A stretch of DNA of 64,000 nt from Candidatus Sumerlaeia bacterium (lineage in GTDB: Bacteria > Sumerlaeota > Sumerlaeia > JADFCW01), in contig JAOAGV010000001.1 of the NCBI GenBank assembly GCA_026415575.1, forward strand, positions 49,399-113,398. Reading direction: 5' to 3'. The position numbers and the translations under genes are program-made. The notes under the pieces were generated by a model, which was not told the origin of the DNA, did not search any database, and saw only the letters and a list, made by a program, of their open reading frames with translations. Shown in pieces: positions 1 through 28,640 of this stretch; position 1 is the stretch's first letter; every line of letters starts with the position of its first letter.

Positions 1-2104
1 CGGTCAGTCCGATGCGGTCGCGCGCCACGACGGCCGCCGGTTGGAAATCAAAGTTCTCCACGGTCAAGTCTGCTTGGGTCGAACCCGCGCCCACTTGAAG
101 CAGGCGGTCGGTGCGATACACGCGATTGTTCGACTCGCTGACCTCGCGCTGCTGGTCGAGCCGGTCCACCACAACACCCACGCGGTAAAGCCCGTCGGAA
201 ACACCGGCCATCAAGCGCCCGTCCACGGTGCTGAGTTGAAATGCACCGCCCGGCGCAAGCGAGGGCATCAAAACGGAGTTGCAGGCAAGAGTATCCAGCG
301 AGCTGAATGAAGCCTTATTGGAGAGCCAGATTTCGAGCCAGCAGGGGGCAGAAGCCACGCCGCCCAGATTCTGCACGGCGCCGGAAAACACGAGGGAGCC
401 GTCGCGCGCGACCGTTTCGGGCTGAAAGTCGAATGCCAGCGGCGCCAAATCCGGCAGCACGGCGACCAATGCCCGATGGACATTCAGCCGCCCATAGCCA
501 TAGGCATTGCTATAGCCGCTGGCATCATAATTGGCGGCGGCAGGGTCAATTTTGTCTGCCGATTGTTTCAACACCTCGGCTACCTGTGTGCGCATCAGAG
601 TGGGGGCAACCGACAAGACCAGTGCAGCGGCGCCGGCCGCCTGCGGTGTGGCCGCCGACGTCCCCGAAAACCATGTGTATCCGCCCAGCGAACTGGCTGC
701 ATAGACCGGATTGACAAAACCCGAATCGCCGCTGGGCGCCAGCAAAAACACACCGTATCCTGTCGCATAATTGCTGTAACCCGCGCGGACGTCCTGGTTG
801 GTGCTGGCTCCGATTCCCAGCACCATGGAATGGCTGGCCGGAAAACCAATTGTGCTTGTGCTTCCGGCGTTTCCAACAGCCGCGCAGATGACGCAGCCCA
901 GACCGCCACGGCCTGTTGTGGCCGCGTATTGGATGGCGGCACCGATGGTGTCATTCGGCAGCGAGCTCCAGCTCATCGAAAGCACGTCGGCATGGACGCC
1001 GGCATAGCGAATGGCCTCGGACAGCCGGCTCAGCGTCGGATTGGTTTCGCCGAGGACGCGGCAGGGAAGGATTTTGCAGCGCGGCGCCACACCGGCCACG
1101 CCCTCGGCGTTGTTGGCTTCGGCTGCGGCCATGCCCGCACAGGGCGTCGCGTGATAGTCGGACAAGCTGTCGGGCCGCGGATTGTTGTCGTTGGCGTAAA
1201 AGTCCCAGCCCGTGACATCGTCCACATAGCCATTGAAGTCGTCATCGAGGCCGTTGCCGGCGATTTCGCGCGGATTGTTCCAGATGTTGTTGCGCAAATC
1301 CGGATGATCTATGTGCAGTCCATCGTCAATGATGGCAATGGCGACCGCGGGCGAGCCCAGCGTGGTATCCCACGCCTCGACAGCGTCAATGTCGGCGTCG
1401 GGACGGCCGCCCGACTGGCCGGTATTGTGCAGATGCCACAGCAGGCCAAAATCCGGATCGTTGGGAAGAAACGAACGCCGAATTTCAACCTCGAAATTCG
1501 GCTCAGCCCACTGAACGCATCCCGATTGCACGGCGCGTGCAGCCGCTTCCATCGCGGCAAACGGCCCTCCCTGCCCGAGCCGCAACCGCACAATTCGGTG
1601 GTCGCTTGCGGTGCGTTCCACCAAGACCGGCCGAAACGAATCTAGAGCGCGAATGAGGCCGACCCACTCATTTTCATCGCGCAGGCACGCCATCAGCTCG
1701 TCGTTCAGCGTCGCCCGCAAACCCGACGGCGGATGGGCCAACACCGCATAGACGCCGCGCACTTTGCCTTCGGCTTGCCACGCTTCGGCCATGGCAAGCC
1801 ACTGCCGGCGCTCCAGTGCCTGCGGCCAGCGCAGCACAAACCGACGTCCGTCGCGCGATGCCGCTTGAATCGCCGGCAACGGCAACAACTGAAGTTCCGG
1901 CGTCAGGCGATTTGCCAAGAATTGTATTGCCTGCGCCCCGCTGGTTTCCACGACCATCTCTCCGCGCAGCCAGCAAAACGGAACACTGGTTCCATCGCTG
2001 AGGCGAAGGCAGTAATCCGGGTCTGCGTCGGCTTGGGCATAGCTCATTGCAAGCACGGCCAGCCCTACCATCAAACACACAATACGGTCTGCGGTGGTAC
2101 GCAT
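1..2104 (-). CDS. S8 (subtilisin-like) serine peptidase, partial (C-terminus beyond window edge)
   Basis: Reverse-strand translation from ATG at 2104 gives a signal peptide (MRTTADRIVCLMVGLAVLAMSYAQA). Catalytic motifs appear in the D-H-S order of S8: AIAIIDDG, DYHATPCAGMAAA and FSGTSAATPQAAGAAAL. The frame stays open to position 1 with no stop, which explains its absence from the ORF track. Confidence 0.75.
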   Translation of the reverse strand, partial: MRTTADRIVCLMVGLAVLAMSYAQADADPDYCLRLSDGTSVPFCWLRGEMVVETSGAQAIQFLANRLTPELQLLPLPAIQAASRDGRRFVLRWPQALERRQWLAMAEAWQAEGKVRGVYAVLAHPPSGLRATLNDELMACLRDENEWVGLIRALDSFRPVLVERTASDHRIVRLRLGQGGPFAAMEAAARAVQSGCVQWAEPNFEVEIRRSFLPNDPDFGLLWHLHNTGQSGGRPDADIDAVEAWDTTLGSPAVAIAIIDDGLHIDHPDLRNNIWNNPREIAGNGLDDDFNGYVDDVTGWDFYANDNNPRPDSLSDYHATPCAGMAAAEANNAEGVAGVAPRCKILPCRVLGETNPTLSRLSEAIRYAGVHADVLSMSWSSLPNDTIGAAIQYAATTGRGGLGCVICAAVGNAGSTSTIGFPASHSMVLGIGASTNQDVRAGYSNYATGYGVFLLAPSGDSGFVNPVYAASSLGGYTWFSGTSAATPQAAGAAALVLSVAPTLMRTQVAEVLKQSADKIDPAAANYDASGYSNAYGYGRLNVHRALVAVLPDLAPLAFDFQPETVARDGSLVFSGAVQNLGGVASAPCWLEIWLSNKASFSSLDTLACNSVLMPSLAPGGAFQLSTVDGRLMAGVSDGLYRVGVVVDRLDQQREVSESNNRVYRTDRLLQVGAGSTQADLTVENFDFQPAAVVARDRIGLT

Positions 2105-2171
2105 CCACGAAGTTGCAGGTGGTCGAACGGCGGCATCGCTGCCTGACTGTGGAACCTTGTTCATGCGGGAG

Positions 2172-3266
2172 CTAGCCGATGAAGTCGCGCGGGTCGGGTG
2201 GTTTGCGGGTTACGCGCGGTTGGTGGTCGGCGTCGGCGGGACGCTCAACCCCCGTACCTTCGCGCAAGATAATCTCTTCGAGTGTCATCTTCTTGGGGCG
2301 CGGGACAAAACCGGGTGCCATCGCATATTGCAAAAGCCGCTGCCGGAGCATTTGTAGATCAAAAGGCTTGGAAAAGAAATCATTGGCGCCCAAGCGCTTG
2401 CAATACTCGATGTCGCGCGGCGAACACTTGGCCGAAATAAATAGGATGGGCGTATTCCGGTAACTTTGATTCTGCCGCAAGGATGCACACAACTGGTAGC
2501 CGCTCATCTTGGGCAACATTGCATCGAGAATAATGAAGTCCGGCTGATAATTAATGATTCGCTCCACCGCGCTCAGACCGTCGGGCGCCGTCGTCACCTC
2601 GAAATCTTCGCGAAGAACCAGCGACAGCATGCTGCGCAAGTCCTCATCGTCCTCGACGATCATGACGCGCGGGCGCGTGGGGGCAACCGCACGCGGCGGC
2701 GGTGGAGGCGGGGACGGCGGCTCCGGCGTGGTGGCGGGCGCGGACGGCTGCGGTCCCGTTACCGGCCGGGAAACCGCCGGGCGGGGCGGCGCTGCCGGTT
2801 CGGCTTTGGGTGGCGCAACAGGAGAAATATCCCCGTGCGCCGCCCAGAATTTGGACAGCTGCTCGATGGTATAGCGTTTCGGCCGCACTCGCGCGCAGGC
2901 CCGCTCAAGTGCATACGCGATCGTTTTGACCAAACGATCCGGATCAAACGGCTTGGTCAGATATAGTGTCGCGCCCGCCTCGTACCCTTTCATAATTTCT
3001 TCTTTGGCCCGCTTGGCCGAAAGAAACAACACAGGGACAGCGTGCAATTGGGGATGCTTTCGGATGGCCTTGCAGGTCTGGAAACCATCCATCAGAGGCA
3101 TGATCACATCGAGGACAATGAAATCCGGCTCCGCCAGTTCGATCTTGTCGAGCGCATCCAACCCGTCATAGGCTTCGACCACTTCATAGGTAGGGCTGAG
3201 CGTGAGGCGCAAAAGCGTCCGGACGTCTTCTTCGTCATCCACTACCATGATGCGAAATTTGTTCAT
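2172..3266 (-). CDS. response regulator with two tandem receiver (REC) domains joined by a Pro/Ala-rich linker
   Basis: Two CheY-like modules (MVVDDEEDV...DFIVLDVIMPLMDG...LSAK and VMIVEDDEDL...DFIILDAMLPKMSG...ISAK). The start is moved to MNKFRIMVV (ATG at 3266), which has GGAGG 8 nt upstream. There is no output domain. Confidence 0.85.
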   Translation of the reverse strand: MNKFRIMVVDDEEDVRTLLRLTLSPTYEVVEAYDGLDALDKIELAEPDFIVLDVIMPLMDGFQTCKAIRKHPQLHAVPVLFLSAKRAKEEIMKGYEAGATLYLTKPFDPDRLVKTIAYALERACARVRPKRYTIEQLSKFWAAHGDISPVAPPKAEPAAPPRPAVSRPVTGPQPSAPATTPEPPSPPPPPPRAVAPTRPRVMIVEDDEDLRSMLSLVLREDFEVTTAPDGLSAVERIINYQPDFIILDAMLPKMSGYQLCASLRQNQSYRNTPILFISAKCSPRDIEYCKRLGANDFFSKPFDLQMLRQRLLQYAMAPGFVPRPKKMTLEEIILREGTGVERPADADHQPRVTRKPPDPRDFIG

Positions 3267-3537
3267 CGCCGTTGCCTCCTCTGTTGCAAAACATATCTGG
3301 CCTTTTGCACCGGATTTGTTTTGAAAACGCCGCCTTGCCTTGCAGAGCCAACTGATTTCCTGCCACAAGAAACCTTCGCCGTCCATAATTTTTCGCGTGC
3401 ATAAAAAGACCGGGAGATTTCAAAAAGAACCTCGCGCAAGGAGGCGGGTGCATCTCCCGAAATTGAGAGACACTTCCCGCGAGCGCAAGCAAGACCGCCG
3501 CGGGATGCCGGAATAATCCCCCTCGCACAGCGCCAAG

Positions 3538-3684
3538 GACTTTGGACTGCGGCAGCCATGTTGCCGCTTTGCTGAAATCGTCCGTCGTCAGACAAAGCGT
3601 TTGCACTGTGGAAAACCGCCCCGCTTGGCGGGGTTGATCTTGGCGAAAAAGAAAGCGGCAGCGCGGCTGCCGCAGTCCAAAGCG
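3538..3684. repeat. MITE-like palindromic element, copy 1 (about 146 bp, about 30-bp terminal inverted repeats)
   Basis: The left end TTTGGACTGCGGCAGCCATGTTGCCGCTTTG is matched at the right end by its reverse complement, AAAGCGGCAGCGCGGCTGCCGCAGTCCAAAGC. The internal part is conserved with copies at about 13.9 kb and 25.5 kb. The element lies in a 580-bp intergenic gap. Confidence 0.7.
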
Positions 3685-3849
3685 TACGCCGGAGCGGCAA
3701 CGGCGAATGTGCCCAAACCGCGTGTCAACGCATTACACCAACCTCAATAATCCTTGCCCCGATCTTCGACAAAGTACAGAAATAAACAGTGCATAAACAT
3801 TCGGCTGTCGCAATGGCAGCGCACATTCTTTCGCAGGGAGGAATTGACC

Positions 3850-4959
3850 ATGCCCGCAAATCCCACGGAACCGGTCAAAATCGGTATCATCGGTTCGCAG
3901 TTCGTCGCCGAAATTCATGCGGCGTCGTTCAAGGCCATTCCCGATGCGGCCGAACTTGTGGCTGTCGCCTCGCCCAGTGCAGGCCATGCCGAATCGCTGG
4001 CCGCCCGCTACGGCATTCCGCGTGTGTTTCGCGACTACCGCGACATGTTGTGCGAGGCCGACATCGAGATGGTGACCATCGCGGCGCCCAACCGGCTTCA
4101 CGCAGAAATGGCAATTGCCGCCGCCGAAGCCGGCAAGCATGTTGTTTGCGAGAAGCCCCTTTGCATGACACTTGAAGAAGCCGACCGCATGATCGAAACT
4201 TGCCGCGCCCGCGGCGTTCTTCTGCTCTATGCCGAGGAACTTTTCTTCACACCCAAATATGTCAAAGCCAAGGAGATGGCCGATCAGGGCGCTTTCGGAA
4301 AAATCTATCTGGTCAAGCAGAGCGAAAAACATTTCGGGCCGCACTCGCCGTGGTTCTGGGACGTCGAACAATCGGGCGGCGGCGTGTTTTTCGACATGGG
4401 CTGCCACGGCGTCGCGTTTGCCTGGTGGTTTCTGAACCGGCCGGCCATCCGCAGTGTGTTCTGCCAGATGGGAACCTATGTGCACGGCGACAAAACGCGC
4501 GGCGAGGATAATTCCATCTGCATTATCGAATTTGACGGCGGGGCGGTGGGGCTCATCGAGGACAGCTGGGCGCGCCGCGGCGGCATGGATGACTGCATCG
4601 AGGTCTATGGTGAAGGCGGTGTAACCTACGCCGACTTGATGATGGGCAATGCGCTGCCGACCTACAGCGAATACGGCTACGGCTATGCGGTCGAGAAAGC
4701 ACCGACCACACGCGGCTGGTCGTGGCCGGTCTTCGACGAACTCTGGAACTATGGTTTCCCGCAGGAGATGCGCCACTTTTGCCGCTGTGCGCACGGGATC
4801 GAAAAACCGTTGGTCACCGGCGAAGACGGCCGCGTGGTAATGGAAGCGTTGCTGGCCGGCTATCAATCGGCCGGCACGGGGCAAAAAGTGGCCCTGCCAT
4901 TCCGCCCGACAGGCGTGGCCAAACCGATTGACTTGTGGCGAAGTCCCGTGCGGGTTTGA
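3850..4959 (+). CDS. Gfo/Idh/MocA family NAD(P)-dependent oxidoreductase
   Basis: N-terminal Rossmann motif KIGIIGSQFVAEIHA, then EKPLCMTLEEADRM. The start is moved to MPANPTEP (ATG at 3850), which has AGGGAGG upstream. Confidence 0.85.
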   Translation: MPANPTEPVKIGIIGSQFVAEIHAASFKAIPDAAELVAVASPSAGHAESLAARYGIPRVFRDYRDMLCEADIEMVTIAAPNRLHAEMAIAAAEAGKHVVCEKPLCMTLEEADRMIETCRARGVLLLYAEELFFTPKYVKAKEMADQGAFGKIYLVKQSEKHFGPHSPWFWDVEQSGGGVFFDMGCHGVAFAWWFLNRPAIRSVFCQMGTYVHGDKTRGEDNSICIIEFDGGAVGLIEDSWARRGGMDDCIEVYGEGGVTYADLMMGNALPTYSEYGYGYAVEKAPTTRGWSWPVFDELWNYGFPQEMRHFCRCAHGIEKPLVTGEDGRVVMEALLAGYQSAGTGQKVALPFRPTGVAKPIDLWRSPVRV

Positions 4960-4999
4960 GGTTTGTTGCACGGGAAACTAGCCGTTCCTATACCATGCA

Positions 5000-5269
5000 A
5001 ACACATCCACAGATTGCGCGGATTGCGCAAGTTGCGGGGCAGGCGCTTTTTAACAGGACTGTGTTAGGGGGAGATTTGGGAATAAAAACTGGAAGCATAA
5101 AGCCCATTAAGGCGAAATATCCATAAACTTAACTGCACCCCTTTAGCTGAATTCTAACATAACGCACAACAAAACCGAATGTGACATTCATCGGGATTAT
5201 ACAAAGACTTCACGCCAGATTTATTTATTCTTAGCTCACAATCTTTATAGGAAAGAAAGGGAAAGGGCT
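5000..5269 (+). promoter_or_regulatory. AT-rich (about 38% GC) leader/promoter region upstream of the tandem secretin genes
   Basis: A sharp GC drop relative to the flanks over a 270-bp non-coding stretch, ending at the RBS GAAAGGGAAAGGG before the ATG at 5270. Confidence 0.35.
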
Positions 5270-6937
5270 ATGAGGTTTGCCATGGTCTCTGCACTCTTTG
5301 TCGCTTTGCTTGCGCCCGCAGCGGCGGGTGAACCCAATCCTAGTGTTGAAAAACCGACTGCTCCTGACGAAATCCCCTCCAACGTTGTCAAAGTTCTGCG
5401 CACGACCAACAAGGCGCAGATCAACCGGTATGTCCCGAAGGTTTATGCATTCAAGAATGTAAATCCCTTCAGTGTGGTTCGCTTTTATCGGCGAGTGATA
5501 GAACTCGAAGAGGGACGGTTTGCAACATTTGTCGCTCCGGATGGGAAGAGCGGGTTGGTCTTGGTGGTTGTGCCGGAATACCAGATCGAATCGCTGGACA
5601 AGCTCATGACGTCGCTGGACCGGCCGGACCTGACCACATCGGGCGACGATTATTACAAATACATCCAGTTGCGCCACCGCGCCGCCGACGACGTGGGGTT
5701 TCTGGGGGCTGTCTGGAGCCAAGGAACGCGCAGCAGCAGCCGTCCGCCGGGCGGCTCGCGGGTCTCGGACGTTGAGTTTTATTGCGATCTGGAAACCAAC
5801 GCCATCTTTGTGCAAGGCCCGCAAAGCATTGCCGACTCGGTGGAATCCGCCGCCCGGGCGCTTGATCTGCCGGTGCCGCAAGTTCTGATCGAGGCGACGC
5901 TCTATGAGCTGGACTTGAACAACGACAATGCCATCGGCTTCGATTACTATGCGTGGAAAAACGGTCCGGGCCGCAATCTGTTTGCCGTTGGCGCTTATGC
6001 CGAATACGAAAAAGTCAACGAGCTGCAGGGGGGAGTGCCGCTTTACAACAGCGGTGTGAACAGCTTCGGACTTCCTGAAAGCCGCTTTCGCAGCCGCGGG
6101 GCCAACGCCGCCTACTTTCTCGATATTCCTTCGGCGTATCTAGACTTTTTAGTGACCAAGGGCGTGGGCCGGATCATTACAACAGGCCGCATTCTGAGCA
6201 AGATTCCGACGACATATAAGTCGGGCTTGAACGCCTTCGGACAGGCGACGTTTGATCCCGAAACGGACCGCCCCGCGCTCGCCGCCGCTCCCGCCGAGTT
6301 TCGCGCCAATGACGAGGTGCTTTACTACAAGGTCGAGACCGGTCCGACGCCCCGCGCCGGCGCGCGCGCACCGGCAAGTGTCCTCGACCCCTACGGCGAC
6401 GACCCAACCTATCCCGACAACCGCACGGTGGTCGGCAAGGCAGTGCCGCTGCGGGCCGGCGGCACGACGGTGAACCAGCGCACGCTGGCCGCCGTGGAGG
6501 TCGGAACGTTGCTGCAAGTGACCCCCCGCATTGCCGAGGAAGACATGTCGCTCCGGCTGCGAATGGAGGTCTCCAGCCTTCTGGGATTTGACGGCACGGG
6601 CAATCCACGCATCAGTGCCCGTCGCGTGGAAACTGACGTGCGCGTTCGCGACGGCGAAGAGGTCGTTTTCGGCGGCATCGAGCGGACATCGCGGATGCAG
6701 TCCACGCGCAAGATGCCGCTTCTGGGTTCGCTGCCCGGGATCGGCTGGGCGTTCGGACACGAAATGGGCGGCAGCAAAAAATGCGTAGTGGTGGCCGTGA
6801 TCCGGGCCGTCCGGCAGTCGGGCGGTCTAACGGCGGAGGCTGCCGAAGTCGCCCGCCAAGTCGGCGATGAGGCGCCCGCGCCTCTGCCACCCAACCGGTT
6901 CGGTTTTGATCAGTGGTGGATTGACAATACGCGGTAA
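5270..6937 (+). CDS. secretin-family outer-membrane channel protein (GspD/PilQ-like), paralog 1
   Basis: A signal peptide, then a secretin-N-like region (VVKVLRTTNKAQINRYV...). The secretin domain begins QVLIEATLYELDLNNDNAIGFDYYAWKNGPG. The C-terminal motif is KMPLLGSLPGIGWAFGHE. Confidence 0.75.
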   Translation: MRFAMVSALFVALLAPAAAGEPNPSVEKPTAPDEIPSNVVKVLRTTNKAQINRYVPKVYAFKNVNPFSVVRFYRRVIELEEGRFATFVAPDGKSGLVLVVVPEYQIESLDKLMTSLDRPDLTTSGDDYYKYIQLRHRAADDVGFLGAVWSQGTRSSSRPPGGSRVSDVEFYCDLETNAIFVQGPQSIADSVESAARALDLPVPQVLIEATLYELDLNNDNAIGFDYYAWKNGPGRNLFAVGAYAEYEKVNELQGGVPLYNSGVNSFGLPESRFRSRGANAAYFLDIPSAYLDFLVTKGVGRIITTGRILSKIPTTYKSGLNAFGQATFDPETDRPALAAAPAEFRANDEVLYYKVETGPTPRAGARAPASVLDPYGDDPTYPDNRTVVGKAVPLRAGGTTVNQRTLAAVEVGTLLQVTPRIAEEDMSLRLRMEVSSLLGFDGTGNPRISARRVETDVRVRDGEEVVFGGIERTSRMQSTRKMPLLGSLPGIGWAFGHEMGGSKKCVVVAVIRAVRQSGGLTAEAAEVARQVGDEAPAPLPPNRFGFDQWWIDNTR

Positions 6938-6965: not shown

Positions 6966-8762
6966 ATGCGCGGCGAAAAGAACAAATCATTCTGTTCGGC
7001 AGGTTGGACATACGGGAGGCGACTCTGGAAACCTGCATGGACGGTCGTTGCTGCTCTGCTGGTCGCCCTGAGCGTGGTTCACTACGGTGCCGTTATTATG
7101 TTTGCGGCACAATTCGATGAGAGCACCGGCGTCAATACGCGTCGCGGCGATCCCAGCCCCACGGCGGCCGAGAGCAACCTGGACGACTATACCTTTCAGG
7201 ACGAGCAGATCAATCTGGCCCCCGACAGCGGCGTGGTTAAAGTCCTGCGCGTCAACCAGAAGAATCTGATCAACGACTACGTGACGGAGATGATTCCGTG
7301 TCGCAACGTCAGCGTGCGGGAGATTCGCCATCTGATGCGGCAGGTTTGCGGGGCCGAAGGCGGGCGCGCCGAAGTCGTTCGCGACAAAAACCAAAAGGAA
7401 TACTTCATTCAGGTGATCTGCCCAAGGTTCCAACTGCCCTACCTGCGCGAAGCGATTGCGGCGCTCGACCAACCGTGGGTTCGCTACATGGACGACGGTG
7501 CGTCGGTCACCTACTACACGGCCAGATTTCGCGACATCCGCGCCGTGGACCGCCTCGCCACAATCTGGGCCGGCGACGGCGAAAGCCAAATTGACCTCGC
7601 CCGCAATGCTGTCCTTCGCTGGGACGAACCCTATCGCGTGAAGGAATACCGAACCCAAGGCGTGGTCATGGTGGATATCCCCGTCAATCAGGTGTTGCTC
7701 GATTTAAAAATCTACGAGATCAATGTAACCAACGACATCAAGTTGGGTTTGGACTACATTGCGTGGAAAAACGGCCCGGGACGCAATCTTGCAGAGTTGA
7801 TCGCCGCCGGCATGGAAAACCGCGAGCACTTCGCCAACGCATCGAGCATCTACAATCCGGTCTATCCGCGCGTGGTCAATCCCGGCCCCCGCGATTTGCA
7901 TCTGACGCGCGAGTTTGCCACCGGGCAATACCACGCTTTTGCCAACTATCTGATGACCTCGGCGTATCTGGATTTTCTGGTCTCCAAAGGCCGCGCAAAA
8001 ACGCTGGCTGCCACGCAGCTTCTGGCCACCAGCGGGCAGGGGCGCAACGCCGGCACCTCACCCGCACGGTTTGAGGCCGTGGACGACATCGCCGGCTTTG
8101 AAATCCACCCCAACGACGCGGGTGTCGAGACGGGAACCGGCGCGCGCCCGACGCGTCTGGCTACCACAATGGGACAGCTGATCGTGGACGGGGCCACGTC
8201 GCGCGCCATTCGCGACGACGACGGCAATCCGACGTTCACGTATTCCCCAAATCCGATCACCGTGGATACGCCCGTCCACAGCCGGACGCTGCAGTATGGA
8301 CTGCGCGGCAAAACTGGCCTTTTTTTTGAAGTGATTCCCCACGTGGCACTCGATGCCTGCGAGTTGGAGATCGTCGCCGGTGCATCGAGTCTCGCGGGCA
8401 CCGGCCCCGACGGGCTGCCGATTCTGGCGCAGCGGACAATCTCGGCGCAGATCAGCGTGCCCAATGGCCAGCCGATTGTGCTCAGCGGTCTGTCGCGCGT
8501 CACACGAGTCCACAACAACGCACGCATGCCGATTCTGGGGAAGATTCCGATTTTGGGCTATGTCTTCGGCGGCGAGATGGGCGTGCAGCGGGAAACACAG
8601 GTTGTTTTTATCCTCACGCCGACGATTATTGCGGCCTCGGATTCCGCCGTGACCTTGGGACATCAGGCGCGCGAGGCCATCGCGCGCGTCAAGGGCGAAA
8701 TCAAGACGATGCCGCCGCGCCATCCGCTGGGATTCGACCAGTGGCTGCTGGGGGAAGAGTAG
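6966..8762 (+). CDS. secretin-family outer-membrane channel protein, paralog 2
   Basis: The same architecture: VVKVLRVNQKNLINDYV; QVLLDLKIYEINVTNDIKLGLDYIAWKNGPG; ARMPILGKIPILGYVFGGEMGVQRETQVVFILTPTII. The shared C-terminal tail (GFDQWLL versus GFDQWWI) shows a tandem duplication. Start at the MRGEKNK ATG at 6966. Confidence 0.75.
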   Translation: MRGEKNKSFCSAGWTYGRRLWKPAWTVVAALLVALSVVHYGAVIMFAAQFDESTGVNTRRGDPSPTAAESNLDDYTFQDEQINLAPDSGVVKVLRVNQKNLINDYVTEMIPCRNVSVREIRHLMRQVCGAEGGRAEVVRDKNQKEYFIQVICPRFQLPYLREAIAALDQPWVRYMDDGASVTYYTARFRDIRAVDRLATIWAGDGESQIDLARNAVLRWDEPYRVKEYRTQGVVMVDIPVNQVLLDLKIYEINVTNDIKLGLDYIAWKNGPGRNLAELIAAGMENREHFANASSIYNPVYPRVVNPGPRDLHLTREFATGQYHAFANYLMTSAYLDFLVSKGRAKTLAATQLLATSGQGRNAGTSPARFEAVDDIAGFEIHPNDAGVETGTGARPTRLATTMGQLIVDGATSRAIRDDDGNPTFTYSPNPITVDTPVHSRTLQYGLRGKTGLFFEVIPHVALDACELEIVAGASSLAGTGPDGLPILAQRTISAQISVPNGQPIVLSGLSRVTRVHNNARMPILGKIPILGYVFGGEMGVQRETQVVFILTPTIIAASDSAVTLGHQAREAIARVKGEIKTMPPRHPLGFDQWLLGEE

Positions 8763-18820: not shown

Positions 18821-18908
18821 GGAGGGGTGGTCGAGTGGCTAATGGCACGGGGCTGTAAACCCCGCGAGCGAGAGCTCTACGGAGGTTCGAATCCTCCCCC
18901 CTCCACCA
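18821..18908 (+). tRNA. tRNA-Tyr (anticodon GTA), with long variable arm and encoded CCA
   Basis: GGAGGGG acceptor stem pairs with CCCCTCC. Anticodon loop CTGTAAA. T-arm GGAGGTTCGAATCCTCC. 3-prime ACCA. Confidence 0.85.
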
Positions 18909-25825: not shown

Positions 25826-27202
25826 CTAACTTTCACACTCTTTCGAGTGCTCTCGCCACAGGCCTTTTCGTTTTTCGCGCGCCTCGGCTTCGTATTGCTC
25901 GAAACGCTTGCGGTGGCGGTAGGGGTGCGAGCGGTCGGCGCGGGCATAGCCGTCGCGGATCATGCGCGCGTTAAGAAACTTTTTGTTGCTCAGGTGGACG
26001 TAGGCGGGACCAGAAGCGCCGTCGGCGAGCGGCCCGTGGTCGTTGCTGAGTTCAAGCCCGCTGCTGCGAACCATGCGCTCAAGATGTTCGATTGCCAGTT
26101 CCTGCGCGCGAGATTTGCTTTCGACAGAAGGCCACGGGGCGACGCCGAGCAGCGTGATGGTGCGTCCATCGCGCAGCAACAGTTCGGCAGGACTCAGGAC
26201 GGTTTTCAGTTGAGCCTTTTTCTTCGGGAATTGCTGTTTCACCGTGACGCGTGTCCCATACGAGTTTTCCCGCGGATCCACAGCGCGGCGAATTTGCACA
26301 CTACCGCTTGCGGCTGCGGGGCCTGCGCTCCAGCGCCGGATACGTTCCTCGAAATCTTCGGGCGAGGCGGACCGCTCGATGAACTCAAGGTTCGGCAGCC
26401 CGATCGCGTTGAACAATTCGCCGCCCTCGCGCATCCGATTCTCGATGGTTGCGCGGAATTCCGGGTTGATCTCGTAGCCCACAGAATTGCGGCCGAGTCG
26501 GTGCGCCGCCAGCGAGGTCGTCCCGCTGCCGAGAAAGGGATCGAGCACGGTTTCACCGGCAAAGGTGAACATGCGAATGAGCCGGCGCGGCAGTTCGAGC
26601 GGAAAGGCGGCCGGATGCTCTCCCTGACGGACGCCGCTGAAATTCCAGTGGCCGTAAAAATACTCGTTCCACTCCTCAGTCGTCAGGCGCGCGGCTTCTT
26701 TGGCGGCAAGCGAGGGCGGAGGGGGCGCCTTGCCGGGTTTTTTGAAAATCACGATGAACTCATAGTCAATCTTGATGATGCCATTGCGCGGAAACGGAAA
26801 GGAACCCATGATTGCCGCGCCGCCCGACGTATTGCATGTGGTAACCTTTTGCCAGATGATTGCGCCCATATAGTCGAGACCGAGTTTTTTTTCGCAAAAG
26901 CCGACAATTTCCTCGCGGATGGGAATTACTTTGTAGCGTCCATAGTGGGCGGCGCGGGCGAACTGGTCGCCGATGTTGACGCACAGCCGGCAGCCGTCGT
27001 GGAGCACGCGCGCACATTCTTCCCACACCAGATTCAGATTGTTGATGTAGGCGCGATAGTCATCGTGAAAGCCGATCTGGTCCGCCGCGCCGTAATCTTT
27101 GATCTGCCAATAGGGCGGCGAAGTGACGACCAGATGAACGCTCCGGTCGGGCAGTTCCGGCATCGCGCGGGAATCGGCAAAGATGATTTTGTGCGTGGAC
27201 AT
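25826..27202 (-). CDS. DNA methyltransferase (beta-class, SPPY motif: probable N4-cytosine MTase) fused to a C-terminal SNase-like (thermonuclease-fold) domain
   Basis: Motif IV TSPPYW precedes motif I DPFLGSGTT, which is the beta permutation. The C-terminal 150 aa (TVLSPAELLLRDGRTITLLGVAPWPS...GPAYVHLSNKKFLNARMIRDGYA...EAEAREKRKGLWR) aligns to staphylococcal nuclease topology. The canonical VDTPE metal site reads VAPWP. Confidence 0.8.
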   Translation of the reverse strand: MSTHKIIFADSRAMPELPDRSVHLVVTSPPYWQIKDYGAADQIGFHDDYRAYINNLNLVWEECARVLHDGCRLCVNIGDQFARAAHYGRYKVIPIREEIVGFCEKKLGLDYMGAIIWQKVTTCNTSGGAAIMGSFPFPRNGIIKIDYEFIVIFKKPGKAPPPPSLAAKEAARLTTEEWNEYFYGHWNFSGVRQGEHPAAFPLELPRRLIRMFTFAGETVLDPFLGSGTTSLAAHRLGRNSVGYEINPEFRATIENRMREGGELFNAIGLPNLEFIERSASPEDFEERIRRWSAGPAAASGSVQIRRAVDPRENSYGTRVTVKQQFPKKKAQLKTVLSPAELLLRDGRTITLLGVAPWPSVESKSRAQELAIEHLERMVRSSGLELSNDHGPLADGASGPAYVHLSNKKFLNARMIRDGYARADRSHPYRHRKRFEQYEAEAREKRKGLWREHSKECES

Positions 27203-27551
27203 AAAGGCGGCAAGTAATCCTCACTCTCAATCTGTTACCTTGCAAATGAAATGGTGAATTCGTGTCCCGAGCGATTCAAGTGTGAATGCGCGACTGCACC
27301 GTCAGTTTTCCAAGATACTGATAGTGCCACAAAAACGGGGGAAGAATCCGACAGTTATTACTATATGCATTGTGTGGAACACGGAGAGTGTTTTTGTGGG
27401 TTTGGCATTTTTATCTTGCACTCTGCGGTTACTTGATGCCAATCTTTATTAGAGCCATAATGAAATACGCTTTACGGGGTAGGCAACATAGGAATTTGCA
27501 CTTTGGGCAATACCCAGTATCTACTTACAAACCACAGAAAGGAGTAAGAAT

Positions 27552-28070
27552 ATGGCGTATTGGCTATTCTACGTTATGGACTTTGTAAGCGAATCAGGTG
27601 GCTTTAAGAAACAAGTGCAATGGGGGGTTGCAGCACAACAATATCCTACCCCTGATTGGGTAGGCGCATACCAGAATATGCCGCTCCTGCGCAAAATCAA
27701 GTGCGGCGATTGGCTCGTCGCAGGACGCTCTTGTCGGTTTGCGGGCTATGCGCAATCTCTGTCAGACTTTTATCAGGGCGGCCGCTCGCTTGACATACCT
27801 TGCCCCTATGATCCGGACTACCACTTTGAATTTTACGAACGTGTGGATGTGGAATGGTATGTAGTGCCTGGGTATGAAGACTACGAAAACTGGTTGGATT
27901 TGCACGATTTCAAGAAGGCACTCCTGAAGGAACAGCAGAGAACAGGAGGAAGTCGATCCTATAGTCCCATTGATTTCCCCATGGGGAGATGCCTTAAGCA
28001 AATTAATGCGGGTCTGTTCAAGGAACTGCGCAGGCGACTCGACGAAGCCGGCGCACGTCCCATTGGCTGA
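27552..28070 (+). CDS. hypothetical protein, possible PUA-like (EVE-type) modified-base-binding domain
   Basis: N-terminal MAYWLF and KIKCGDWLVAG resemble the EVE hallmarks (M-x-YWL...MK-x-GD). The gene has about 42-50% GC. RBS AAAGGAG. It ends at a TGA in the same frame as the downstream HNH ORF. Confidence 0.5.
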   Translation: MAYWLFYVMDFVSESGGFKKQVQWGVAAQQYPTPDWVGAYQNMPLLRKIKCGDWLVAGRSCRFAGYAQSLSDFYQGGRSLDIPCPYDPDYHFEFYERVDVEWYVVPGYEDYENWLDLHDFKKALLKEQQRTGGSRSYSPIDFPMGRCLKQINAGLFKELRRRLDEAGARPIG

Positions 28071-28142
28071 AGAAGGCGCGATGTTCGCCGCTAACGTAGA
28101 CCATCTCTTACATGCTGGGACAGACTTGACGATACCAAGCCA

Positions 28143-28427
28143 ATGCCGGCGCATCACTGCTTCTTTCTGGTCACCAGACCGGTGCGTAGCTCGCGAAATC
28201 GCCTTGCTGCAAAAGAACGTGCGAAATGGTGTTGTGAGGTGCCGGGATGCCGGATCCCAACGTTTATGCAAAGGAACCATGGAAAACCCTATCTTGAAGC
28301 CCACCATCTCGACCCTCTGGGAGAAAAGGGGGCCGAACACCTGTCGAATATTGCCGTCGTAGACGCTTGGCACCATGCCTTATTGACATATGGTCCCCTA
28401 AAGGACGCTAAAAAAGTCGCCGGGTAA
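28143..28427 (+). CDS. HNH endonuclease domain ORF (possibly the severed C-terminal half of an EVE-HNH Type IV restriction gene)
   Basis: WCCEVPGC...YLEAHHLDPLGEKGAEHLSNIAVVDAWHH has the C-x2-C, the catalytic His and the N...H-H of the HNH motif. There is no convincing RBS. It is in the same frame as 27552..28070. Confidence 0.55.
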   Translation: MPAHHCFFLVTRPVRSSRNRLAAKERAKWCCEVPGCRIPTFMQRNHGKPYLEAHHLDPLGEKGAEHLSNIAVVDAWHHALLTYGPLKDAKKVAG

Positions 28428-28640
28428 CTAAGAAACGTAAGGCGTGCAAAAAGATAGGTGGAAAACGGCCGCAAAACACGGGACCTGTCCGTCTGCTCGG
28501 CTCTTTTTTTCTCTTGAACGCTTTTCTGTCCCTGCGCCAGCATAGCGGCCTCGAACGCGGGATTCGGCCGGGGGGCGGATTTCCCGTTCTAAGGCCCGAT
28601 GGAACAAAGGGCCATCGTGTCCAGAAAGGAGGTGATCCGA

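Follow-up and report, generated by a model that had tools for sequence, protein, structure and literature searches.

In the 64,000-nucleotide stretch of a Candidatus Sumerlaeia bacterium analyzed here (assembly GCA_026415575.1, contig JAOAGV010000001.1, positions 49,399 to 113,398; hereafter the window), the open reading frame (ORF) at 25826..27202 (-), 458 codons plus a stop, encodes a protein that joins an N-terminal DNA methyltransferase (MTase) domain to a C-terminal domain of staphylococcal nuclease (SNase) fold in which the metal ligands and catalytic residues are replaced. This fusion is a common form of the MjaI-type (CTAG) restriction-modification (R-M) methylase in uncultured Bacteria and Archaea, and the window protein is an ordinary member of a long-form subfamily that is known to databases and biochemically uncharacterized. 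Taking all observations together, we consider it rather probable that the window protein is a CTAG-type, long-form N4-cytosine methylase, solitary in its genomic setting, that uses its dead SNase domain as a DNA-binding accessory.

The gene is a single, uninterrupted reading frame, and its product is identical to an entry already in the databases (P0001), named "DNA methyltransferase [Candidatus Sumerlaeia bacterium]". Residues 1–258 (26429..27202 (-)) form the β-class N4/N6 amino-methyltransferase domain, as supported by alignments with PF01555, PDB entry 2zie and the methylase of plasmid pFZ1. N6_N4_Mtase (PF01555) matches residues 22–253 in Pfam with an E value of 2.9e-41 and a score of 142.3 bits, the cut-off being 26.7. 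Motif IV (T27-S-P-P-Y-W32) precedes motif I (F223-L-G-S-G227) in the sequence, the permutation that defines the β class; the initial annotation of this DNA, which had called the domain a complete β-class amino-MTase, is thereby confirmed. Our homologue listing comprises 120 proteins, and all counts out of 120 refer to the matches listed. Across them the catalytic tetrad S28-P-P-Y31 of motif IV (27110..27121 (-)), the SPPY form of N4-cytosine enzymes, is invariant, and motif I, F223-L-G-S-G-T-T229 (26516..26536 (-)), which binds S-adenosylmethionine, falls in conserved columns, with D221, P222, F223, G225 and T228 invariant or nearly so. The SPPY motif is common to the characterized CTAG enzymes M.MjaI, M.MthZI, M.BfaI and Haloferax HVO_0794 (Zim), β-class N4-methylcytosine (m4C) methylases of 303–364 amino acids (aa) (PMC5867850), in line with the earlier reading of TSPPYW as a sign of N4-cytosine specificity. 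The window protein shares PF01555, the β motif order and the SPPY motif with these enzymes, whereas they lack an SNase domain and it extends to 458 aa, with about 200 extra residues made up of a linker and the dead SNase domain.

The best solved relative of the MTase part is TTHA0409 of Thermus thermophilus HB8 (PDB 2zie, 2zif and 2zig), a β-class dimeric enzyme to which residues 3–257 align with an E value of 4.5e-55 (2zie); by comparison, TTHA0409 is only 297 aa long and has no C-terminal SNase-like domain. The next PDB relatives are again β-class enzymes, namely M.PvuII, M.RsrI, MboIIA, CcrM and the rotifer N4CMT, the last of which is also reported to carry an SPPY motif (PMC10406627). The inter-domain region (residues 259–329; 26216..26428 (-)), as delimited in the full-length AlphaFold2 model, contains a short strand and helices at 271–298 followed by a low-confidence linker at about 300–329, the predicted local distance difference test score (pLDDT) being 86–90 at residues 271–290 and 48–64 at residues 291–330. 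Pfam and NCBIfam scans detected no PD-(D/E)XK or HNH domain in the window protein, and no signal peptide was found on it.

The C-terminal domain (residues 330–458; 25829..26215 (-)) is matched by SNase (PF00565) in Pfam over residues 400–450 with 37.8 bits (gathering score 21), and two NCBIfam thermonuclease models match the same stretch weakly. A C-terminal profile built from 38 family members retrieved only thermonucleases from the PDB, with E values of about 5e-6, and hhalign of the family against the Staphylococcus aureus nuclease gave probabilities of 89% (global) and 93% (local). In the full-length AlphaFold2 model, residues 330–458 have pLDDT values of 85–98, and a domain-only model has a mean of 93.5. 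Foldseek against the PDB returned only staphylococcal nuclease among the 50 matches listed, with template-modeling (TM) scores of 0.70–0.76 over about 130 columns and a probability of 1.00, and the modeled domain contains both the oligonucleotide/oligosaccharide-binding (OB) barrel and the three helices of the SNase fold. Together, the Foldseek, profile and model results indicate that the predicted domain is a genuine SNase fold and more than a mere OB barrel, which bears out the SNase topology proposed initially.

The active site of this domain is degenerate. Residue equivalences were taken from the global profile alignment and column counts from the 120 homologues. Of the Ca2+ ligands of SNase, D21 corresponds to P338 of the window protein (P in 112/120), D40 to A355 (a column in which K, A or R prevails and D does not occur) and T41 to P356 (P or E). 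Of the catalytic residues, R35 corresponds to T350 (R in 83/120 and K in 6/120), the general base E43 to P358 (E in only 7/120) and R87 to S397 (R in only 12/120). All six positions are thus replaced in the window protein, and the loss is family-wide for all except the R35 equivalent. The replacement of calcium and catalytic ligands noted initially is therefore correct, and the degenerate site is shared by the family as a whole. One detail of the initial alignment did not survive: the segment RDGRT pairs with the Y27-K-G-Q turn of SNase, and it is L336-S-P-A339 that pairs with D19-G-D21-T. The invariant residues of the domain are L351, G353, A370, L404, N406 and N411, of which N411 aligns with SNase N100; they look like core or turn positions. 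From the loss of metal ligands and catalytic residues, the SNase-like domain is predicted to be unable to cut DNA by the SNase mechanism, and it differs from staphylococcal nuclease (PF00565) also in the lack of a signal peptide and in its fusion to a methylase.

The fusion of MTase and SNase-like domains had been regarded initially as foreign to standard R-M architectures. This view is overturned by the distribution of the family. All 120 homologues listed are 412–481 aa long, their identity to the window protein is 51–82% when the self-entry P0001 is excluded, and query coverage is at least 94% in 119 of them. Many carry the precomputed PF01555 plus PF00565 pair, and some are named "thermonuclease family protein" at source. 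The continuous ORF and these collinear homologues also rule out a frameshift or a separate gene for the C-terminal part, a circumstance raised with the initial annotation. When a single genome was scanned for each species, relatives turned up in at least 598 species-level genomes of Bacteria and Archaea, and nearly all of the best 80 of these align to query residue 434 or thereabouts, or further. They are distributed over many bacterial phyla and, in Archaea, include Methanosarcinaceae, Halobacteria and Methanothermococcus. A profile of the SNase-like domain matches 995 representative clusters at E ≤ 1e-10; the short top matches inspected are mostly pieces of the same fusion, and the multi-copy matches are mostly ordinary multi-SNase proteins. 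Furthermore, the PADLOC MTase_II profile PDLC03259 (423 positions) spans residues 1–437 with an E value of 3e-149, so the long architecture is already modeled in a defense-system database. In annotated plasmid and phage collections, no record covered 80% or more of the query, and only the MTase domain was matched; the long form mainly belongs to uncultured lineages. The literature that we searched yielded no paper describing an MTase–SNase fusion, nor any test of the role of the inactivated domain.

The long-form methylases are closely linked to MjaI-family restriction endonucleases. Among the first four homologues on longer contigs, a PF09568 (RE_MjaI) gene lies beside or near the methylase in two. 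We then surveyed the neighborhoods of 80 species-level loci, the best 80 of the at least 598 relatives. MjaI-family endonuclease sequence is present just downstream of the methylase in 64 of the 80 (53 full-length, 11 partial or split), and in 62 loci it follows the methylase directly in the same orientation, the median gap being 64 nucleotides. Thirteen of the 80 loci have adequate flanks and no endonuclease, and the flanks of three further loci without a match are too short to judge. In most genomes, therefore, the long-form methylase supplies the modification activity of an R-M system made up of two genes, and this habit of pairing with MjaI-family endonucleases is shared with the M.MthZI-type enzymes.

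A guide to the specificity of the family comes from Methanothermobacter plasmid pFZ1, on which a gene annotated as "MjaI family restriction endonuclease" adjoins that of a 355-aa methylase. We take this methylase to be M.MthZI, judging by the organism and the 11-kilobase (kb) plasmid. The endonucleases that partner long-form methylases are 42–50% identical to the pFZ1 MjaI-family enzyme. The window protein aligns with the pFZ1 methylase at 34% identity (E 3e-42) over residues 2–275 only, and the 80-residue C-terminal tail of the pFZ1 protein showed no similarity to the SNase-like domain in hhalign (probability 0.2%), which rules out that tail as a reduced SNase-like domain. Given this restricted match and the unrelated tail, the window protein is by its sequence an MjaI/MthZI-type methylase of extended, long form. 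The literature assigns MjaI and MthZI to CTAG and lists M.MjaI among the m4C enzymes (PMC5867850; PMC11033074). Between motifs VIII and X the sequence hardly varies throughout the long-form family, also in those members that have an MjaI-family endonuclease as partner. The probable target of the window methylase is CTAG, with methylation to C(m4)TAG at the first C.

In the window itself the partner is missing. Neither tblastn nor a six-frame hidden Markov model (HMM) search with filters off found any trace of an MjaI-family endonuclease in the 64 kb, not even a remnant, and the adjacent PF09568 gene typical of MjaI/MthZI systems is thus a feature in which the window differs from them. The methylase gene has a guanine-plus-cytosine (GC) content of 0.595, as compared with 0.59 for the window. 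On this absence and the host-like base composition, the window copy is probably a solitary (orphan) methylase, judged over the 64-kb window, whose restriction partner was either lost or never present. A Sumerlaeota relative with an 82%-identical methylase (locus L006) shows the same state: its methylase stands beside the same pseudopilin gene as in the window, and no endonuclease was found at that locus, where the downstream neighbor is a HEAT-repeat protein. At L006 a 556-aa ORF, which overlaps the stop codon of the MTase gene, was considered as a partner nuclease and proved to be this HEAT-repeat protein; the 560-aa protein beside the MTase at another locus (L001) has no Pfam match and is unrelated to it.

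Intermediate states are found elsewhere in the family. The homologue P0006, 74% identical to the window protein, is accompanied in its locus (L086) by an RE_MjaI gene at 4373–4846 whose 157-aa product matches profile positions 1–126 of 164 and appears to be C-terminally truncated. The same island contains toxin–antitoxin pairs at 2821–4128 and 7492–8242 (BrnT/BrnA twice and HicA/HicB), a typical defense or mobile-island context. P0010, which lies beside an IS200/IS605-type transposase gene, lacks an endonuclease; at L004 a 25-residue N-terminal endonuclease remnant is left (6304–6378); in L013, L044, L057 and L066 the endonuclease matches cover only 18–40% of the profile, and at several loci the matches are split in two. 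The 11 partial or split endonucleases, the L004 remnant and the states seen at P0006, P0010 and L006 point to recurrent endonuclease decay that leaves orphan methylases behind. Orphan CTAG methylases, HVO_0794 among them, are common in Halobacteria according to PMC5867850, which cites Blow et al.

The frequency of the putative target is consistent with CTAG restriction. Dinucleotide-preserving shuffles predict 62.6 ± 7.0 CTAG sites in the window, which contains only 7, and the observed-to-expected ratio (O/E) of CTAG under a trinucleotide Markov expectation, 0.14, is the lowest among the 256 tetranucleotides. In the homologous loci that were fetched, the ratio is 0.23 with an endonuclease and 0.40 without. 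This depletion is no proof of CTAG restriction, because CTAG is rare in many prokaryotes. Five of the seven sites fall within 4.5 kb (1642–6140), where no sign of a special function or an origin-like cluster was seen; two of them, at 1642 and 2172, fall on the stop ends of the ORFs 476..1645 (+) and 2172..3386 (-), respectively. The second most depleted tetranucleotide of the window is GTAC (37 sites, O/E 0.42), which is reported to be recognized by M.MjaV, a further m4C system (PMC11033074).

Several features of the dead domain bear on its role. The R35 equivalent, which contacts phosphate in SNase, is R or K in 89/120 homologues; Y428, the equivalent of SNase Y115, is Y, F or H in 119/120; and K or R is kept at positions 407, 416, 429, 431 and 433 in 108–117 of the 120. 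The median net charge is +5 for the SNase-like domain versus +1 for the MTase domain. In addition, the domain is kept, with its conserved scaffold positions, in the endonuclease-free copies (the window, L006 and 13/80 loci), so it is independent of the endonuclease. A comparable layout is described in PMC6787082 for CcrM of Caulobacter, in which an N-terminal β-class amino-MTase is followed by a C-terminal accessory domain that binds DNA non-specifically. CcrM methylates adenine in GANTC, and it shows no match to the C-terminal region of the window protein; the likeness would thus be a functional analogy for the proposed DNA-binding role. On these grounds, the dead domain would most likely serve as an accessory, non-catalytic DNA-binding module. 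The SN-like domains of Tudor-SN (SND1) and of extended-Tudor proteins are eukaryotic, only 13–18% identical, placed in other domain contexts and without a link to DNA methylation.

In the proposed mechanism, the protein would act as a Type II β-class N4-cytosine methylase consisting of an MTase domain of about 260 residues, a linker and an SNase-fold domain of about 130 residues. As a solitary methylase it would mark the genome without restriction, and the dead SNase domain would raise the affinity for, or hold, DNA flanking the target site. A more specific version, which we put forward only tentatively and regard as unlikely in its full detail, is that the inactivated SNase cleft was exapted and still grips the strand or phosphate backbone next to CTAG, like the C-terminal domain of CcrM, raising affinity or processivity and favoring survival of the enzyme as a solitary genome-wide epigenetic marker after decay of the endonuclease.

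The non-catalytic DNA-binding role has to be weighed against other readings of the domain. Since the SNase fold is complete and the acidic residues D388 and D423 are nearly invariant (113/120 and 109/120), the domain might be an active non-canonical nuclease and the protein a combined R-M enzyme of Type IIC/IIG kind. We hold this to be highly improbable. Across the 120 homologues the Ca2+-ligand side chains D21 and D40 have given way mostly to P, K or A, as has the general base E43, and R87 is lost too; D388 pairs with SNase D77, outside the known metal and catalytic residues of SNase, and the invariant residues look structural. A Type IIC/IIG enzyme has an intact nuclease site in the same polypeptide, and the only nuclease-like domain of the window protein is a dead SNase fold. 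Moreover, a separate, dedicated endonuclease is encoded at 80% of loci, and solitary copies are stably retained, although an unpartnered nuclease would be hazardous. Of the two functions envisaged initially, the inactive DNA-binding appendage is therefore the better one, and a non-canonical nuclease is unlikely in view of the family-wide loss of catalytic positions other than the R35 equivalent and the separate endonucleases of most systems. β-class methylases form dimers, and the dead domain could instead be a protein–protein or oligomerization scaffold without DNA binding, in the manner of the Tudor-SN SN-like domains, which stabilizes the methylase dimer or touches the MjaI-family endonuclease so that restriction is coordinated with modification. 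This is a lesser candidate, though one to be kept in mind. Contact with the endonuclease sits poorly with the retention of the domain where that enzyme is absent, and short-form CTAG methylases pair with MjaI-family endonucleases without any SNase-like domain; the conserved basic positions, together with the kept phosphate and base contacts of SNase, fit nucleic-acid binding better.

The specificity assigned to the MTase domain is likewise contestable. The enzyme might recognize a sequence other than CTAG or methylate adenine at N6, the solitary copy then being an epigenetic regulator. Several points weigh on that side and against a CTAG-specific m4C enzyme: no adjacent endonuclease anchors the specificity of the window protein, its identity to the pFZ1 methylase is modest, the JGI labels of homologues read "adenine-specific", and TTHA0409, the closest structure, bears no more specific name than "Putative modification methylase". 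The JGI names, however, are automated generic labels. The invariant SPPY, the nearly invariant motif VIII–X region, which extends to members with MjaI-family endonucleases, the identity of those partner endonucleases to the pFZ1 enzyme and the extreme CTAG depletion in the window all speak for CTAG, and a different target or an adenine product seems to us unlikely.

Next to the apparently solitary methylase, between it and the pseudopilin gene, lies a low-GC segment of about 1.3 kb (27213–28505; GC about 0.50 versus 0.59 for the window), which the 82%-identical relative L006 lacks. The segment contains the divergent neighbor of the methylase, a 172-aa ORF (27552..28070 (+)) whose own deposited entry is its sole homologue and which has no Pfam, NCBIfam or PADLOC match, followed by an McrA-like HNH segment (28143..28427 (+); PADLOC mREase_IV, E 1.9e-5; PDB 6ghc McrA, E 0.0015). 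Two in-frame stop codons separate the two, and the second zinc/catalytic motif of the HNH segment, CPNCH, is replaced by DAWHH. By these features the segment seems to be what is left of a Type IV (methyl-dependent) restriction gene. The divergent neighbor was also considered as a cognate endonuclease and was rejected, the 172-aa ORF having no family match and the HNH piece being of the McrA Type IV kind and not MjaI.

Two further observations were made in passing. At gathering threshold, Rfam matches the window just once, at a tRNA gene (18821–18905 (+)). Outside the window, the top matches of the domain profile with 4–7 repeats provided no new context for the SNase-like domain: P0151 has no Pfam SNase match, and the others are ordinary multi-SNase proteins. 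P0121, P0122, P0152, P0155 and P0198 are 582–1113 aa long with three to four tandem PF00565 stretches, some of them fused to pyrroloquinoline quinone (PQQ) β-propeller or Lcl C-terminal domains, and are probably secreted multi-nuclease proteins.

These results correct the impression of an exotic architecture, the fusion being already captured by Pfam domain pairs, a PADLOC profile and NCBI names. If the SNase cleft has indeed been exapted to grip DNA, this would be the first described role of an SNase fold in DNA methylation. The repeated loss of the endonuclease makes the family natural material on how R-M systems become orphan epigenetic enzymes.
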